Assembly (NCBI GenBank): GCA_047172325.1
Contig: JBCQWG010000004.1
Span: forward strand, 7,118-71,117
Length of the DNA: 64,000 bases
Direction of reading: 5' to 3'
From: Rikenellaceae bacterium
GTDB taxonomy: Bacteria; Bacteroidota; Bacteroidia; Bacteroidales; Rikenellaceae
A program made the position numbers and the translations under genes. The notes beneath the pieces were generated by a model. The model was not told the origin of the DNA. It worked only from the letters and a program-made list of their open reading frames with translations, and ran no database searches. Of this stretch, positions 14,692 to 21,939 are shown piece after piece (the stretch's first letter is position 1; each line of letters starts with the position of its first letter).

Positions 14692-15291
14692 ATGCCAGAG
14701 AAGATAATACAAGCTAAAATAAGCAACGAAGATAGCGCTAAACTGCCACCCCTCACCTTTGAGGGCGAGATAGTAATTATTGATAAAGAGGAGCAGATAG
14801 AGGCTGCCTGCAATGATATTGCTCGCTACCCTATCATTGGATTTGACACCGAGACTCGACCATCATTCAAAGCTGGAGTAAGTTACAAAGTAGCACTACT
14901 ACAGCTCTCAACACCTATTAAGTGTTACCTATTTAGACTCAACAAGATACCTCTAAGTAGATCCATTTTATCACTCTTAGAACGCAAAGATATCATCAAG
15001 TTAGGGGCTGATGTCTTGGGAGATCTACGCTCACTACGCCAGCTGCGAAACTTCAAAGAGAATGGCTTCATCGACCTTCAAAAGATCATCGAAGATTATG
15101 GAATTGAGGAGAAGAGTCTTCGCAAGATGTCCGCGCTGGTCTTAGGTTACCGCATCTCAAAAGCTCAGCGACTCAGCAACTGGGAGGCCACGACATTCAC
15201 TCCACAACAGCAGATATATGCTGCAACGGATGCATGGGCATGCATCGAGATTTACAACAGATTACAAAAAATGCAAAAGATAACTAAATAA
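14692..15291 (+). CDS. 3'-5' exonuclease (DEDDy, WRN/RNase D-like)
   Basis: IGFDTE, LLQL, SNW, YAATDA. Confidence 0.9.
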   Translation: MPEKIIQAKISNEDSAKLPPLTFEGEIVIIDKEEQIEAACNDIARYPIIGFDTETRPSFKAGVSYKVALLQLSTPIKCYLFRLNKIPLSRSILSLLERKDIIKLGADVLGDLRSLRQLRNFKENGFIDLQKIIEDYGIEEKSLRKMSALVLGYRISKAQRLSNWEATTFTPQQQIYAATDAWACIEIYNRLQKMQKITK

Positions 15292-16484
15292 TGAGACCAC
15301 AACTATTTTTAAAACGCGGCAAAGAGGAGTCTCTTCTCCGCCGACACCCATGGATCTTTTCAGGAGCTATAGATAAGGTAGATTCCAAAGAGGAGCTTGT
15401 AGAGGGTGAGATCGTGGACATTCGTACAAAAGGTGGCGAGTTCATTGCCTCTGGGCACTATCAAATAGGCTCTATAGCTGTGAGAATCATCACCTTTGAG
15501 CAAGAAGAAATCAACCAAGAGTGGTGGAACTCAAAGATTGCAATAGCTTACAAGGTGCGTCAAGCTCTACAACTCACCGACGAGGAGCAGACAACATGCT
15601 ACCGTTTAATCCATGGCGAGGGTGATTCTCTGCCCGGTTTAGTGGTAGATATCTATGATCGCACCGCTGTTGTTCAGTGTCACTCCGTAGGTATGTATCA
15701 CTCACGTTTAAAGATTGCCGAGGCAATTAAAGTGTGTTATGGAGATAAAATTGAATCAATATATGACAAGAGCTCTCAGACTGTTCCATACAATGCAAAT
15801 CTAGGTGCTGTCGATGGTTACCTATGGGGGCACACACCCTCGTCAGAGAGCGTCGTACTTGAAAATGGTCATAAATTCATGGTAAATTGGGAGAAGGGAC
15901 AGAAGACAGGCTTCTTCCTCGATCAGCGCTTCAACCGCTTCCTAGTGGGCCACTACTCGAAGGGGCGCACCGTGCTAAACACCTTCTGCTATACGGGAGG
16001 CTTCTCGGTGTATGCCATGGCGGGTGGCGCCAAGGAGGTTTGCTCAGTTGACTCATCTGAGCGCGCAGTAGCTCTAGCTAAAGAGAATATGGAGCTGAAT
16101 TTCGGTAAAGATGTAAACCACTCCACATTAGCTGTTGACGCTATAGAGTATCTCAAAAATATTGGAAATAAATATGATCTAATAATCCTCGACCCTCCAG
16201 CATTTGCCAAGCACCATAAAGTATTGGGCAACGCCATGCAGGGCTACAAGCGTCTCAACGCGCGTGCGCTATCTCAAATCAAGAGCGGAGGAATCCTCTT
16301 CACATTCTCCTGCTCACAGGCGGTTTCGAAGGATCTCTTCCGAACAACAATCTTCTCGGCTGCGGCAATTGCGGGACGTAAGGTTAGGATACTACACCAA
16401 TTAACCCAACCTGCCGACCACCCTATTAATATATATCACCCAGAGGGCGAATACCTTAAGGGGTTGGTTTTATATGTAGAATAA
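15291..16484 (+). CDS. rlmI: RlmI-like SAM-dependent 23S rRNA m5C methyltransferase
   Basis: HPWIFSG PUA domain, GQKTGFFLDQR, FCYTGGFS, LDPPAF, TFSCS, YLKG. Confidence 0.88.
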   Translation: MRPQLFLKRGKEESLLRRHPWIFSGAIDKVDSKEELVEGEIVDIRTKGGEFIASGHYQIGSIAVRIITFEQEEINQEWWNSKIAIAYKVRQALQLTDEEQTTCYRLIHGEGDSLPGLVVDIYDRTAVVQCHSVGMYHSRLKIAEAIKVCYGDKIESIYDKSSQTVPYNANLGAVDGYLWGHTPSSESVVLENGHKFMVNWEKGQKTGFFLDQRFNRFLVGHYSKGRTVLNTFCYTGGFSVYAMAGGAKEVCSVDSSERAVALAKENMELNFGKDVNHSTLAVDAIEYLKNIGNKYDLIILDPPAFAKHHKVLGNAMQGYKRLNARALSQIKSGGILFTFSCSQAVSKDLFRTTIFSAAAIAGRKVRILHQLTQPADHPINIYHPEGEYLKGLVLYVE

Positions 16485-16525
16485 AATAATTATTGCTGTC
16501 TCTATGGACAGCAATAATTATTTTA
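16482..16525. terminator. Bidirectional terminator between convergent rlmI and the corrinoid cassette
   Basis: Perfect 19-bp inverted repeat TAAAATAATTATTGCTGTC / GACAGCAATAATTATTTTA. Confidence 0.8.
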
Positions 16526-16533
16526 CAATGTAA

Positions 16534-17544
16534 CTATTTGTAGCTCTCCTGCTCCTTAGCTGTATTTATAAATGCTAAGATATTTTCAAGGCTTGTATCG
16601 CTCTCGACAGAGTGTGATGGCGAGAAGATATAACCACCATCAGCTCCAATTTCCAAAAGGTGTTTTGACTCTCTGATAACATCCTCAACTGTGCCAAATG
16701 GAAGGGTCTTTTGCATGGATAGACCACCATGGAAAGCTAAGCGACCTCTATATTTTGGTAGGATCTCATCGAGGTCCATCACCTCTGGCTGGAATGGGTT
16801 AAAGCTATTGAGGCCTGCATCAATCAGATCATCGAAGAGCTCATCTACATCACCACAGCTATGTATCATGACATATTTTCCATTATCTCTCACATGCTTG
16901 TACATACGTTGGATGCGGGGATATAGGAACTCTTTCCATAAGTCGTAGCCCATGATGAGACCTCGCTGCTGGCCCCAGTCATCTCCAAAGTAGACTGCAT
17001 CAATATCATGCTCCAGAGCTTTATCAATTTGAGCTATATTGTAATCACATATTTTATCCAAAAGTTGGTGAACAAAATCTGGATTTATATAGAAATCCAT
17101 CAAAAGATTCTCCATACCGCGCATGGTCCAAGCTCTCTCGTAGAGCGAGAAACCAATCTGGAAAACTCTAAACATATCTGGCTTTAGAGCTATCTCACTC
17201 TCAATATTCGCAAAGAAACGTGGGTCGTGAGGATTGGGGAAGGTATACCCCTCAAGTGTAGGTTCAGGGAAGACGATACCCTTTGCATCACCTATATCCT
17301 TATCAATGCTTCTATCCCAAACTACACCGAACACATCTTGATATAGATCTGGACCTACGCAATCAAAGAAACCAATATCGCTTCCTAGCTGCAAAACATG
17401 ATTATCAAGAGGAATATCGAGATCTTCCACTCCGTAATACTCTTGAAGGACTTTTTTTGGTTCCTCAGTAAATTTATAAGACCAAGGCACGTATGGTGGC
17501 TTCCCGCCATCCAAAACAACTTTTATTATCTCTCTCTTTGTCAT
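16534..17544 (-). CDS. Uroporphyrinogen decarboxylase-like (URO-D/MtaA/CmuA superfamily) methyltransferase
   Basis: [32 protein letters not shown]. Confidence 0.82.
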
Positions 17545-17550
17545 AATAAT

Positions 17551-18537
17551 TTATTTTATTTGTGAGTAAAATGCTATAATATTCTCTTCTGGTAGATCTG
17601 GAGGGGTGTCGCAACCTGTAGAGATCACAAAATTTTTATGCTCTCCACAACTATCAAGTAGATCCCGTGTTGCTTGTGCCACCTCCTGTGGGGTTGCCAA
17701 CTTAAAGATAGAGACAGGATCCAAATTTCCCATAACGATAACATCCTCTGGCACCTGAGCAAAAACCCCCTTTAGATCAATCTTATTACCAAAATGGAGG
17801 GCTTTAGCTCCTGTAACAACCATTGATTCAGTGCAATGACCTGTATTGCCACAGTTATGAAGGACAATCATAAAATCCTCGCTTTGAAGCTCATCGACGA
17901 TCTCCTTTATATATTTAGATGAATATGTCGTAGCATCCTCATTTGATAGAAGACCGGCAGCTGGCTCAGCTATAATAACTCCTGCAACACCGCTTCGCTT
18001 TATCTCTGCTATATACTTTTTGATGAATGCCGTGCACTTCTCCAACAACATGGTGGCAGTCTCAGGCTCTGTATATATAGCCATCATTATCTCTGTCATA
18101 TCGTAGAGCCTACCCGCTAATGAGTATGGTCCAATGCAACCTGCGAACGATGGTTTATCGCTAATTGTCTCTGCAACGATTCTATTTGCCTTAATATACT
18201 CTGGAACACGTCCCGCTGAAAGCTCTGGAACGACCAATGCCTCAACTTGCTCACGACTACTAACCAAACGACCAATTACATTTGGCACATCATCTTCGGT
18301 AAATTCTATCTGCGCGCCAAAGGCCTCTGCCTCAACCGTGAGATCCATAATTACCGTTGGTGCTGCCGATGGATATTTTTTATCTAATGCTATTATTGCA
18401 TCTGCATGTACCTGACCATCTTTAACTGCATCAATCACCTTTTTGCCGATCATCTCAATGCCGGGATGAGTCATGATGGGTATTGCTGGAATTTTAGGGG
18501 AGGCTAAGATATCCTCCGCCCACTTATTCATATTCAT
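17551..18537 (-). CDS. MtaA/MtbA-like methylcobamide methyltransferase (URO-D superfamily)
   Basis: MDLTVEAEAFG, GPYSLA, Zn ligands HNCG and STGCD, MGNLDP. Start moved to ATG 18537 to remove the overlap with the upstream gene. Confidence 0.85.
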   Translation of the reverse strand: MNMNKWAEDILASPKIPAIPIMTHPGIEMIGKKVIDAVKDGQVHADAIIALDKKYPSAAPTVIMDLTVEAEAFGAQIEFTEDDVPNVIGRLVSSREQVEALVVPELSAGRVPEYIKANRIVAETISDKPSFAGCIGPYSLAGRLYDMTEIMMAIYTEPETATMLLEKCTAFIKKYIAEIKRSGVAGVIIAEPAAGLLSNEDATTYSSKYIKEIVDELQSEDFMIVLHNCGNTGHCTESMVVTGAKALHFGNKIDLKGVFAQVPEDVIVMGNLDPVSIFKLATPQEVAQATRDLLDSCGEHKNFVISTGCDTPPDLPEENIIAFYSQIK

Positions 18538-18556
18538 AATAGATTCATTTTTCGTT

Positions 18557-19192
18557 TTATACTCTCTTCTTATAACAATCACTCTTCGTACAGATCTCGC
18601 ACCCATAGGGAGCTTTAACCACTCGTGGGCCAATTACCATAAGAGCACTTACAGATTTTATAGGCAGCATCAAGCAAGAGTCATTCAACACTACGCCACA
18701 AGGTATCTCCGGTTGAAAATAGGCAAATAGCTTACGCTGCTCCTTCAGCAACCATCCACAATATCCCGGACTATAGGAGTTGCTCATCTTCTCTCCCTCC
18801 TCTAAGATCCCCTCGATATACTCTGCCGCCTTTCGTATTGTCGCCTCAGCCATCTCACTGGCGATAGCGTCTGCCACGAAAGCCTTTACGATATCTGTTT
18901 TTTGATACTCATGTAAGAGATCATCGACCTCTTGGCCAATTGTTGCAACTACAACTACATAGCGGTCGGCATCCTTAAGGCAATCTCTTATGATCTTACC
19001 ATAGGTAAAATCGACACTCTCGGTGAAGTGGTAGGCAAATCGAGCTTGAATGCATCCTCTCAACTCTGCCATCATATCATCAATAAGAGTGCGAGTAACC
19101 TCGTCGGGTTCGCTATTGACAATGCCCATTGTTCGAAGGATCTCCTCACGAGAGGGTGTTAGAGCTGAGACATCAACCTTAACCTCATTCAT
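18557..19192 (-). CDS. Stand-alone B12-dependent methionine synthase activation-domain-like protein
   Basis: ATIG, DAIASEMAE, SPGYCGW, MLPIKSVS, C-terminal CEICTKSDC. Confidence 0.8.
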   Translation of the reverse strand: MNEVKVDVSALTPSREEILRTMGIVNSEPDEVTRTLIDDMMAELRGCIQARFAYHFTESVDFTYGKIIRDCLKDADRYVVVVATIGQEVDDLLHEYQKTDIVKAFVADAIASEMAEATIRKAAEYIEGILEEGEKMSNSYSPGYCGWLLKEQRKLFAYFQPEIPCGVVLNDSCLMLPIKSVSALMVIGPRVVKAPYGCEICTKSDCYKKRV

Positions 19193-19196
19193 ACCA

Positions 19197-19820
19197 TTAA
19201 CACATTAACGACTTTGCCAATGTCACAGCTGCATTTGCATTCTCTGAATATCCATGCGCACCAATACTTTGAGCAAAATTATTATTAAGAGGTGCTCCAC
19301 CAACCATGATTTTAACATCTAAACCAGCCTCTTTCACACTCTTTACAATCTCCTCCATGTAGGTCATAGTGGTAGTTAGAAGGGCTGATAGACAGATAAT
19401 ATTGGCATTTTCCACTTTTGCGCTCTCAATAAATTTCTCAGCAGAGACATCGACACCCAAATTGACAACATCAAAGCCGCAACCTTCAAGCATCGAAGCA
19501 ACCAGATTCTTTCCTATATCGTGCAAGTCACCCTTAACGGTACCAATCACAATTTTACCTAAAGATGTTGAATCACCACTCTTCAACAATGGTTTTACAA
19601 TATCCAAAGAGCCTTTCATCGCTCTAGCGCTCAAAAGAAGGTTTGGCACAAAGGCCTTTCCATCCTCAAAACGAGCTCCAATCTCCTCCATTCCCTTAAT
19701 CATATATTCATTGATTAACTGATTTGGATCAACTCCTGCTGCAATAGCTTCATTGGTTACAGCTACCGCATCCTCTAATTTCCCAGCTACGATAGATTCG
19801 TAAAGTTTATTAAGTTCCAT
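19197..19820 (-). CDS. Corrinoid (cobalamin-binding) protein, MtaC/MttC-like
   Basis: Cap domain plus B12-binding motif GDLHDIGKN, SALLTTT, VGGA. Start moved to ATG 19820 (promoter TAATTTTG at 19854-19861). Confidence 0.93.
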   Translation of the reverse strand: MELNKLYESIVAGKLEDAVAVTNEAIAAGVDPNQLINEYMIKGMEEIGARFEDGKAFVPNLLLSARAMKGSLDIVKPLLKSGDSTSLGKIVIGTVKGDLHDIGKNLVASMLEGCGFDVVNLGVDVSAEKFIESAKVENANIICLSALLTTTMTYMEEIVKSVKEAGLDVKIMVGGAPLNNNFAQSIGAHGYSENANAAVTLAKSLMC

Positions 19821-19880
19821 AGTGTTAATTTTAATAAGTTTAATTTTATAATGCAAAATTAATAAGGTTTACATCTATTA

Positions 19881-19921
19881 TATTTCTTGTAATTTGCATT
19901 TTATTTCTGTATATTTGCATT
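19881..19921. promoter_or_regulatory. Putative AraC-family tandem operator between divergent promoters
   Basis: Direct repeats TATTTCT-N4-ATTTGCATT at 19881-19900 and 19902-19921 (21-bp period). The second overlaps the +strand -7 element TATATTTG (19910-19917). Confidence 0.55.
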
Positions 19922-19977
19922 AACAACTATTTGAGCCAATATTAAGCATGGTGTAATTAATAACAATTACTATAATT

Positions 19978-20874
19978 ATGAATATTTTTGAATTTGAAAA
20001 AGTCAAGACAAGTGAAAACAACTCTTTCGCATTCAGCAAATATTGCGATAAGCTATTTATGCGTAATCTCCATCTACATCCTGAAATGGAGGTTGTCTAT
20101 ATCGAGCAGGGAAGAGGAGAGTGTGTCGTTGTGGATAATATAACAACATACGCTGAGGGTGACCTCTATTTCTTTGGTTCAAACCTTCCTCACTACTTTA
20201 AAAGTGATCTTAAATATCATAACGCAGTCTCGGATGCTTTTAGCTGCTCAACATATATTCAATTCCAAGAGGGAATACTTCCAGCCGACTACAATACTAT
20301 GCCCGGATGCAAATATATAAAGGAGCTAGTAGACGCAGGAAGTAGAGGTGTGAAATGGCATCTCGAAGCGGATAGTCCAATTGTAATAATGCTACAAGAG
20401 ATGAAGGATACAGATGGCTTCGTTCGACTAAATATGTTATATGAGTTGCTACACACCTTAGGTACAACGCTTCATAGCGGACAACTTATCGCCTCATCGA
20501 GCTACACCCTATCTAAAAGATCATCCGAAACAAAATATTTCCAGATTATAAACTATATTAATCTCAACTACAAAGATGATATCACATTAGAGGATCTAGC
20601 ATCATTCTGCAATATGAATCGTAGCGCTATGTGTAGATACTTTAAATCTAAATCTGGACAATCAATATTTAGCTATATATTAGATGTAAGAATTGCAATT
20701 GCAAAAGAGCTTCTTGCAACTTCCGATGAGCCAATATCACAAATATTATATAGTACCGGATTTAATAGCATCTCTAATTTTAACGCTAACTTCAAACGTA
20801 TCACCTCATTTACGCCATCTCAATATAGAGAAAAAATTAGAGCAAACTCTTGTTACTGCGCTTCGAGATGTTAA
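19978..20874 (+). CDS. AraC-family transcriptional regulator (cupin sensor plus HTH)
   Basis: HLHPEME and LPH cupin motifs; C-terminal GFNSISNFNANFKR..TPSQYR. Confidence 0.92.
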   Translation: MNIFEFEKVKTSENNSFAFSKYCDKLFMRNLHLHPEMEVVYIEQGRGECVVVDNITTYAEGDLYFFGSNLPHYFKSDLKYHNAVSDAFSCSTYIQFQEGILPADYNTMPGCKYIKELVDAGSRGVKWHLEADSPIVIMLQEMKDTDGFVRLNMLYELLHTLGTTLHSGQLIASSSYTLSKRSSETKYFQIINYINLNYKDDITLEDLASFCNMNRSAMCRYFKSKSGQSIFSYILDVRIAIAKELLATSDEPISQILYSTGFNSISNFNANFKRITSFTPSQYREKIRANSCYCASRC

Positions 20875-21018
20875 AAGAATAACTTCGCTTTAGTAGTACT
20901 TTCAATCTTATTAATTGATGATTAGGTTAATTTATTACAATAATTATTGTATATATGCAATATTATATTTAACTTAGCTGCTCGTAATGAGGTTCAAACA
21001 ACAATTAAACTAAAGCAT

Positions 21019-21939
21019 ATGAAACAAAACAACGAACAAGTTAACAATCAGCCAATGATTGTAAGATTCAGCACTTCGATGAATAGCGGAGTCGAGCCAT
21101 GTAACATTTCACGCCATGCGATAGGTTATATAGTCCGAGGTGAGAAGTATATTTATGATGGCGATAGCTGCCTCCACGCACAACGAGGTGACATCTTCTT
21201 CATGGGAAAGGGGCTACATCATATTGAGAATGTTTCAGAGAAGTTCTCTCACTTTGAACAAATTGTATTCTACTTTAGTTCTGAAGAGTTAAAACATATC
21301 ATTACAAACTTTGGTATCACATACAACCTCAACATTACAAACGACCACTGCTGCAATCAATGTCGCAATGGAAACTCTCTCATAACGGACTCCTCAACGC
21401 TGTTGAGAAATTTCTTTAACAGCGCCGTAAACTATCTATACGACGAAAATTTCTCTCACGATCAAGCTGCCGAGAGCATCAAAATGACAGAGCTAATATA
21501 TCACATCATCTCTCATGAAGATTGCTGCCTGAAGAGCAAGGTGATAGGATGTATTGATCTTGACAAAAGTTCATTCGAACAAGTTATTTACGCCAACACC
21601 TTTAATGATATTCCCATCGAGCGCCTCTCGGCTCTATGCAATCGCTCCCTTACATCCTTCAAAAAGGAGTTTCGACGCATCTTCGACACATCGCCACATC
21701 AATGGTTTCTGCGTCAGAGGTTGAGTCACGCTAGACTCCTATTGATTTCAACACGAAAGTCTATTGCTCAAATTGGCGAAGAGTGCTCATTCCCCAACAC
21801 ATCCCACTTCATTAAGCTATTCAAGCGCTCCTACAATCAAACGCCTGCCACATATAGATGCCATCATATGGCACTTAATGTAAATCATGACGAGGAGCAA
21901 CCCATCGAGAAAAAGATCGAGGTTGAGAAAGTTTGCTAA
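21019..21939 (+). CDS. AraC-family transcriptional regulator (ExsA-like)
   Basis: RSLTSFKKEF, SPHQW, FPNTSHFIKLFK..TPATYR. Start uncertain (21019 or 21055). Confidence 0.88.
   Translation: MKQNNEQVNNQPMIVRFSTSMNSGVEPCNISRHAIGYIVRGEKYIYDGDSCLHAQRGDIFFMGKGLHHIENVSEKFSHFEQIVFYFSSEELKHIITNFGITYNLNITNDHCCNQCRNGNSLITDSSTLLRNFFNSAVNYLYDENFSHDQAAESIKMTELIYHIISHEDCCLKSKVIGCIDLDKSSFEQVIYANTFNDIPIERLSALCNRSLTSFKKEFRRIFDTSPHQWFLRQRLSHARLLLISTRKSIAQIGEECSFPNTSHFIKLFKRSYNQTPATYRCHHMALNVNHDEEQPIEKKIEVEKVC

Follow-up and report, generated by a model that had tools for sequence, protein, structure and literature searches.

A Rikenellaceae operon for corrinoid-dependent methyl transfer, a candidate oxygen-independent demethylase of methylated sugars

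Introduction

How could the methyl ethers of plant and algal sugars be cleaved without oxygen? The question is raised by a four-gene operon in a stretch of 64,000 nucleotides (hereafter the window) from Rikenellaceae bacterium (GenBank assembly GCA_047172325.1, contig JBCQWG010000004.1, positions 7,118 to 71,117), which encodes a corrinoid protein, an activation-domain protein and two enzymes of the URO-D fold. Methyl groups on sugars stand in the way of their ordinary catabolism. Sugars of this kind include the 6-O-methyl-galactose of red-algal galactans, the 4-O-methyl-glucuronate of xylan and arabinogalactan, and the 2-O-methyl-fucose and 2-O-methyl-xylose of pectin. In the literature searched, the only sugar demethylase found was an O2-dependent cytochrome P450 (P450), and no work on a cobalamin-dependent sugar demethylase was found, most subscription journals lying outside the coverage. 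Systems built from a first methyltransferase (MT1), a corrinoid protein and a second methyltransferase (MT2) are of an already known kind.

An earlier note on this locus had proposed a minimal corrinoid demethylation system, with reactivation by S-adenosylmethionine (SAM; AdoMet) and an acceptor other than coenzyme M (CoM), and had named O-methylated sugars as one possible substrate class. Here, we propose that the operon encodes an O2-independent O-demethylase that depends on a corrinoid, acts on a methylated sugar, donates the methyl group to a thiol and is reactivated with SAM. We give this reading, in which we infer the substrate and the acceptor, a rough probability of 0.55. That the operon encodes a corrinoid methyl-transfer system of some kind is highly probable.

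Results

A corrinoid carrier, two methyltransferase-like enzymes and a candidate reactivase

The operon lies on the minus strand and is tightly packed, with intergenic gaps of 4, 19 and 6 nt. Its first gene (19197-19820, likely ATG start at 19820) encodes a corrinoid protein (CP), a small carrier made of a B12-binding_2 cap (E = 3e-21) and a Rossmann B12-binding domain (E = 5e-29) whose DxHxxG motif reads GDLHDIG; the protein scores 200 bits against TIGR02370. It is followed by an activation-domain protein of 211 aa, the candidate reactivase (18557-19192), an MtaA-like URO-D enzyme, the candidate MT2 (17551-18537), and a second URO-D-fold Zn enzyme of 336 aa, the candidate MT1 (16534-17544), here called MT336. 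A small DxHxxG carrier and two distinct predicted methyltransferases are encoded together, as in MT1/corrinoid/MT2 systems.

The MtaA-like enzyme (328 aa, likely start at M33 of the listed open reading frame) matches URO-D with E = 1e-54 and carries the Zn ligands His-x-Cys ... Cys (LHNCG, STGCD). Its best named families are methylcobalamin:CoM methyltransferases, with scores below the NCBIfam cut-offs (PRK06252, 131 bits against 244; MtbA, 121 bits against 600). MT336 (URO-D, E = 1.5e-24; PRK06252, 79 bits against the cut-off of 244) shares 19% identity with its neighbour and differs from it in the Zn ligands. Its motifs are IHSCGD and SPSHS. When the pair is aligned, LHNCG matches IHSCG and the STGCD Cys falls on the SPSHS His; the resulting site is H228-x-C230 ... 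H311, with His311 as third ligand in place of the Cys found in MtaA and in the neighbouring paralogue. The AlphaFold2 (AF2) model of MT336 has a mean predicted local distance difference test (pLDDT) score of 97.4, and its best Protein Data Bank (PDB) match is MtaA of Methanosarcina mazei (4AY7/4AY8; template-modelling (TM) score 0.72-0.74) at 16-17% identity, the next structural matches being the HemE and MetE barrels. A phmmer alignment with MtaA (4AY7) returned the identical ligand pattern, with H-x-C over the MtaA Zn ligands, and the ESM Atlas returned generic 'URO-D-like' clusters only. PF02574 and PF00809 have no match in the operon. The genome has no URO-D gene besides these two. A role in tetrapyrrole synthesis, which the earlier note had raised as a way in which its reading might fail, was rejected, as the two proteins score 25 and 84 bits against the HemE model TIGR01464, far under its cut-off of 303.

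Judged from its model, the activation protein is a stand-alone AdoMet-binding activation-domain fold of ~210 aa, of the Thermotoga maritima TM0269 type. It matches Pfam Met_synt_B12 (E = 1.4e-8), and a profile of 27 homologues matches TM0269 (PDB 1J6R) with E of about 5e-19 and Escherichia coli MetH weakly. Superposition of the AF2 model (pLDDT 87.6) on 1J6R gives TM scores of 0.78/0.83 and a root-mean-square deviation of 2.5 Å; the structure matches that follow are MetH reactivation domains. In the account of Huang et al. 2007 given in PMC7857596, TM0269 is required for reactivation of the TM0268 MetH. The SPGY motif is conserved in the family, and four cysteines are invariant in 27/27 members: C145 (in SPGYC), C198, C201 and C206, the last three in the tail CEICTKSDC. 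C165 is present in 25/27. TM0269 has Gly at the position of C145 and its sequence ends before the Cys tail. The conservation of the four cysteines suggests that they hold a metal centre, which is probably an Fe-S cluster serving as the entry point for electrons. The Arg of the MetH R-x-x-x-G-Y motif varies across the family (R 14, P 10, S 3), so nothing is concluded from the Ser of the window protein.

The host genome (1.96 Mb, 87.7% complete) has Rikenellaceae metagenome-assembled genomes (MAGs) as its nearest relatives. It encodes an intact MetH of 1207 aa (Hcy, pterin, B12 and activation domains) on contig 1, next to methylenetetrahydrofolate reductase (MTHFR), and a split methionine synthase, the second failure that had been envisaged for the operon, was rejected on this ground. 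Within this incomplete genome, there was no match to the RACE/RamA activator (PF14574), and ComA of CoM biosynthesis (PF02679) was not found, which makes CoM an unlikely acceptor. Pterin_bind matched only MetH and, on another contig, a FolP-like protein of 284 aa, and no pterin-binding (MeTr-like) MT2 of the acetogen type was found. The presence of a TM0269-type protein in a genome where RACE was not found supports the proposal of minimal corrinoid demethylation with SAM-type reactivation, as the failure to find ComA supports that of a non-CoM acceptor.

MT336 is one orthogroup across Bacteroidota and the PVC superphylum

The family of MT336 comprises 582 clusters (50% identity) at E < 1e-30. 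At least 578 relatives were confirmed, and the best 80 loci (65-88% identity) were used for all locus counts given here. These loci span Bacteroidota, Kiritimatiellota, Planctomycetota, Verrucomicrobiota, Lentisphaerota and one gammaproteobacterium. Across 86 family members H228 is invariant, the position of C230 holds Cys in 72 and Asp in 13, and that of H311 holds His in 46. In a quick IQ-TREE run, 75 orthologues formed one clade with 97% support and a long stem away from the paralogues; by this phylogeny, MT336 is one orthogroup. Copies linked and unlinked to a corrinoid gene interleave in the clade, with at least 4-8 gains or losses of linkage, and are therefore taken to be the same gene.

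Three further observations concern the spread of the family. The entire cassette of the marine type is present in the gammaproteobacterium Neiella marina (L043), whose MT336 groups as sister to the Labilibacter copy with 99% support, which suggests horizontal transfer. The contig of a 'Clostridia bacterium' MAG (L017) is sister to an Alistipes contig, suggesting that it was mis-binned or transferred. Four Bacteroidota genomes (G157, G057, G233 and G293) each hold at least six URO-D paralogues with 25-37% identity to MT336, possibly methyltransferases that each have a substrate of their own.

MT336 genes occur among genes for glycan and sugar use

Open reading frames on the 80 loci were called with ATG starts only and a 70-aa minimum, by which some genes were shortened or missed, and were then clustered and scanned with Pfam. 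MT336 is joined to the corrinoid protein, the activation protein (Act) and a second URO-D enzyme in about 25/80 loci, where stop and start codons often overlap, including those shared with the corrinoid gene. Among gut Bacteroidales one locus order is SusC-SusD-DUF3823-MT336-CP-Act-MtaA-GH127-MFS and another is epimerase-GH115-MT336-CP-Act-MtaA-GH127-MFS-GH127 (GH, glycoside hydrolase; MFS, major facilitator superfamily). The 103 genes neighbouring gut cassettes include MFS (9), AraC (9), GH127 (6), GH2 (5), GH43 (4), CobW (4), GH115 (3), sulfatase (3) and SusD (3), and the RACE domain (PF14574) occurs in two of them. In about 50/80 loci no corrinoid gene lies within 8 kb of MT336. Around unlinked MT336, a Sugar_tr porter was found in 16 loci, typically directly downstream, and sulfatases, GH127, SusD and PocR-AraC regulators also recur. 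A lyxose-isomerase/PfkB/mannitol-dehydrogenase/S15-hydrolase operon lies upstream of MT336 in five loci.

The most specific clue to the function of MT336 is its adjacency to a P450 demethylase. In the Lutibacter and Mariniflexile loci (marine Flavobacteriaceae, L047-L050), the cassette, in the order AraC, MT336, CP, a URO-D/thioredoxin-like protein of about 458 aa, CobW and activation protein, stands beside a P450 cluster. In L047, from the cultured Lutibacter oricola DSM 24956, it is followed by the P450 and then by a ferredoxin of the 2Fe-2S type, a ferredoxin reductase and a Zn-dependent alcohol dehydrogenase (ADH), and in L048 by an ADH, an esterase, the P450 and a small ferredoxin-sized open reading frame; sulfatases, GH2, GH29 and GH88 flank the P450 loci. 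The Mariniflexile P450 of L048, the one locus whose P450 was compared, matches PDB 6G5O/6G5Q over its full length (E = 3e-197), that is, the 6-O-methyl-D-galactose demethylase P450 of Zobellia (PMC6292453). These associations support O-methylated sugars, named earlier as a possible substrate class, with sugar porters, glycosidases, sulfatases, SusC/D and the P450 cluster all represented in the survey. Candidate substrates are 6-O-methyl-galactose, to which the marine loci point, and 4-O-methyl-glucuronate, indicated by the GH115 of some gut loci. As a separate observation, loci of Kiritimatiellales/Pontiella (L051, L057, L064 and L065) encode a fusion of FA_desaturase and Rieske 2Fe-2S domains (about 476 aa) beside PocR-AraC and MT336, directly downstream of MT336 in L057 and L064 (L064:9184-10614).

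The same neighbourhoods were weighed against an aryl methyl ether O-demethylase, in which MT336 would act on ferulate- or syringate-type phenolics released from arabinoxylan or pectin, like Odm, Vdm and Mtv. Aryl ethers are chemically easier to cleave, the GH43, GH51, GH115 and GH127 neighbours fit feruloylated arabinoxylan or arabinan, and URO-D-family MT1 enzymes are known aryl O-demethylases (PMC10418091). However, we consider this explanation unlikely, given the Sugar_tr porters downstream in 16 loci and the recurrence of operons for sugar kinases and isomerases, of sulfatases and of the P450 cluster for methyl-galactose; no genes of aromatic catabolism turned up in the neighbourhoods, and the window genome yielded neither a pterin-binding MT2 nor RACE.

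Both URO-D enzymes might instead act on S- or Se-methyl compounds, as in type 1 mlp clusters. The 328-aa enzyme is MtaA/MtbA-like with His-Cys-Cys ligands, mlp clusters also lack a folate MT2, and ClMlp2 methylates selenide (PMC10418091). Yet MT336 has His-Cys-His, and replacement of Cys by harder Zn ligands (His/Asp) fits O-ligands, whereas His-Cys-Cys fits thiols (PMC10418091). Neither Ram/RACE nor adjacent sulfur or selenium genes were found, the neighbourhoods in other genomes consist of glycan and sugar genes, and that paper mentions neither Bacteroidota nor an activation-domain protein. A role in methyl-S/Se metabolism is accordingly given a low probability.

MT336 co-occurs with corrinoid proteins and the activation protein

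The many loci in which MT336 stands apart from a corrinoid gene (about 50/80 within 8 kb) could mean that it is a corrinoid-independent TIM-barrel Zn enzyme of sugar catabolism, leaving the MtaA-like enzyme as sole user of the corrinoid protein; identity to MtaA is only 16-17%, and the URO-D fold includes the non-corrinoid HemE and MetE. The distribution of partner genes makes this quite improbable. A stand-alone corrinoid protein of 200-275 aa is encoded elsewhere in 37/39 genomes with a corrinoid-free MT336 locus, and in five other such genomes, all five have stand-alone corrinoid modules elsewhere. The activation protein is present in 25/39. Among 300 sampled high-quality Bacteroidota genomes, 21 carry the activation protein and 17 carry MT336-like genes, the activation protein occurring in 13/17 genomes with MT336-like genes versus 8/283 without, a descriptive comparison in which related genomes are not independent. 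Moreover, linkage to corrinoid genes recurs independently inside the single orthogroup, the MT336 and corrinoid genes have overlapping stop and start codons, and the H-x-C of MT336 aligns with the Zn ligands of MtaA.

The enzymes that accompany MT336 vary, being an MtaA-like enzyme, a 458-475-aa URO-D protein with CobW, or a pterin-binding protein with MTHFR. Within the Rikenellaceae subclade alone, the partner is either the 328-aa MtaA-like enzyme (the window and L012) or a 475-aa URO-D protein with CobW (L015, L028, L029 and L031). The exchange of partners around a constant MT336 is consistent with a role of MT336 as the MT1 that determines the substrate and of the partner as MT2. The alternative partner (about 460-475 aa; L048:9694-11070, L028:5655-7082) is always followed by a CobW-family GTPase, likely a Zn chaperone; the copy in L048 has a C-terminal thioredoxin-like domain and none was detected in the L028 copy.

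The separate corrinoid modules vary as well, and include CP-pterin-binding-MTHFR-activation protein, AraC beside CP-MtaA-like-MFS-GH109, and one unrelated MtaB-CP-RACo. The first is seen in a Bacteroidales genome (G001, L104:2684-8186), where the corrinoid protein, a pterin-binding methyltransferase (280 aa), an MTHFR-like protein (478 aa), a Cys-tailed activation protein and an FGGY sugar kinase form a folate-linked version of the central module, the MT336 of that genome lying in a separate sugar operon. The last, in a Prolixibacteraceae genome (G005, L111:3480-8180), is a methanol-type system in which a full-length MtaB (PF12176, E = 7e-161) and an activase of the RACo/RamA type are clustered with a corrinoid protein. 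Capture of methanol (from pectin or xylan methyl esters or reduced formaldehyde) by MT336 as a non-MtaB methanol:corrinoid methyltransferase would give one universal small substrate to explain 65-88% identity across very different habitats, and it would agree with the settings of glycan degradation and with the ADH that neighbours the P450 cluster. This explanation is very improbable, as methanol requires neither a porter nor a kinase or isomerase for sugars, MtaB is the methanol MT1 already known and occurs separately with RACo in one carrier genome, and the AraC/PocR regulators and SusC/D indicate glycan-derived ligands.

Control and context of the operon

The operon is divergent from a cupin-AraC regulator (19978-20874, plus strand; Cupin_2 and HTH_18/HTH_AraC), from which an AT-rich spacer of 157 nt (19821-19977), the presumed divergent promoter/operator region, separates the corrinoid gene. 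Promoter-like hexamers on both strands of the spacer were at chance level, and neither a B12-type riboswitch nor any other Rfam family was matched in the operon region, so that control by a B12 riboswitch was rejected. A second AraC-family regulator, of the ExsA_N type by domain scan (20947-21939, plus), begins 72 nt after the first, such that two tandem AraC genes face the operon; its membership in the system is a candidate assignment. The closest locus, L012, likewise has an AraC2-like gene beside the cassette, and an AraC homologue stands within or beside 17/80 related loci, mostly upstream and divergent.

At its other end, the operon is closed by a bidirectional terminator-like hairpin (16481-16526) between it and the convergent rlmI (15291-16484, plus), with a perfect 20-bp stem, a folding energy of -23.9 kcal/mol (z -10.2) and U-rich tails on both strands; a consensus terminator scan did not list it. 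The four genes, both regulators and the terminator had all been placed correctly beforehand, as domain scans, motifs and hairpin folding confirmed. The flanks are housekeeping genes (typA, exonuclease, rlmI and iPGM).

Discussion

In the mechanism that we propose, the whole three-component system would be cytoplasmic. MT336 would bind the methyl ether, with the Zn site of His228, Cys230 and His311 polarising the ether oxygen, and Co(I) of the corrinoid protein would attack the methyl group to give the free sugar and methyl-Co(III). The MtaA-like enzyme, with Zn held by His-Cys-Cys, would then move the methyl group to a thiolate, of which homocysteine or sulfide are the likeliest, not CoM. On a slip to Co(II), the TM0269-type activation protein would re-methylate the cofactor with SAM, electrons for reactivation arriving via the metal centre, probably Fe-S, held by the four invariant cysteines. 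The cupin-AraC regulator would turn the operon on in the presence of the sugar. Beyond this one operon, the MT336 cassette could be the missing route by which O-methyl sugars of plant and algal glycans are demethylated independently of O2, widespread in Bacteroidota and the Planctomycetota-Verrucomicrobiota-Chlamydiota (PVC) superphylum, with a new Fe-S reactivase and transfer of the methyl group to a thiol, a tentative proposal that we hold at a little under even odds. Together with it, and at the same tentative level, methyl transfer to homocysteine would link glycan breakdown to methionine or methanethiol.

Several known systems share parts of this design. The aryl O-demethylases (OdmABCD/Vdm of Acetobacterium dehalogenans, MtvABC of Moorella, those of Desulfitobacterium and MtoABCD of Methermicoccus) have a URO-D-superfamily MT1 and a DxHxxG carrier in common with the operon. 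They also share a second methyltransferase and a dedicated reactivation protein in one operon, as well as Co(I) ether cleavage, which is proposed here. The aryl systems act on aryl methyl ethers, with an MT2 that delivers the methyl group to tetrahydrofolate or tetrahydromethanopterin and an ATP-dependent RACE/RamA activator, whereas the operon has an MtaA-like MT2 and an activator of the MetH-activation type, and its relatives in other genomes lie in a sugar-catabolism context. Methanol:CoM methyltransferase, MtaABC, resembles the operon in its Zn H-x-C...C site and MtaC-like carrier, MtaA being the best structure match of MT336 and the nearest named family of the 328-aa enzyme. Unlike MtaABC, the operon has no MtaB, no CoM gene was found and the host is a bacterium; identity is 16-17% and the NCBIfam scores fall below cut-off. 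Type 1 mlp clusters (Kountz and Balskus, PMC10418091) also combine several MtaA-like enzymes with a corrinoid protein, without a folate MT2, in non-methanogenic anaerobes. They carry Ram/RACE, their Mlps are almost all His-Cys-Cys, and they are found mostly in Firmicutes with links to S/Se genes (PMC10418091), whereas gene content and Zn ligands set the operon apart: no RACE, a His-Cys-His MT336, a TM0269-like activator and glycan links.

The P450 of Zobellia (P450ZoGa), which demethylates 6-O-methyl-D-galactose with a ferredoxin, a reductase and an ADH, performs the same net reaction as proposed here, from methyl sugar to free sugar, with proteins unrelated to the cassette. That route requires O2 and releases formaldehyde (6G5O/6G5Q; PMC6292453, PMC10033563), whereas the proposed cassette route would be O2-independent and would keep the methyl group on a carrier. 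TM0268/TM0269 of T. maritima provide the precedent for a stand-alone AdoMet-binding activation domain of ~210 aa. However, TM0269 serves a MetH that has no activation domain of its own and lacks the Cys tail, whereas here MetH is complete, the activation protein has four invariant cysteines and the corrinoid protein is separate. Relative to the literature found, the new elements are the proposed class of sugar substrates, the use of a Cys-rich activator of the TM0269 type where other systems have RACE, and the distribution across Bacteroidota and PVC.

A sugar substrate is supported by gene association, and several points weigh against the demethylase that we propose. Cleavage of an alkyl methyl ether is more demanding than that of an aryl ether. 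Identity of 65-88% across marine, freshwater, gut and digester habitats implies a single substrate, yet the neighbours indicate different sugars. A scan of the window genes found, as described before, no transporter, glycosidase, RACE or pterin-binding gene adjacent to the operon, nor any sugar kinase. Of the 39 genomes with a corrinoid-free MT336 locus, 14, mostly PVC, have no detectable activation protein, and two have no stand-alone corrinoid protein. The background of stand-alone corrinoid proteins in the 300 Bacteroidota genomes was inseparable from MetH and regulators, and the co-occurrence of the activation protein was used in its place. The Cys tail of the activation protein is modelled at a pLDDT of about 42, and Zn could bind there instead of Fe-S.

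If the proposed O2-independent demethylation of sugars is true, cobalamin enzymology would gain a new class of substrates, and the Cys-rich activation protein would represent a new way to repair Co(II) corrinoid proteins without the ATP-driven RACE. Such a demethylation would also offer O2-free biocatalysts for ether cleavage. For the organisms themselves, it would be relevant to the use of methyl sugars by strict anaerobes of guts, rumens and sediments, would account for some of the B12 that gut Bacteroidales require, and would predict that the digestion of fibre and seaweed is a new supply of methyl groups in the form of methionine, methanethiol or one-carbon folate.

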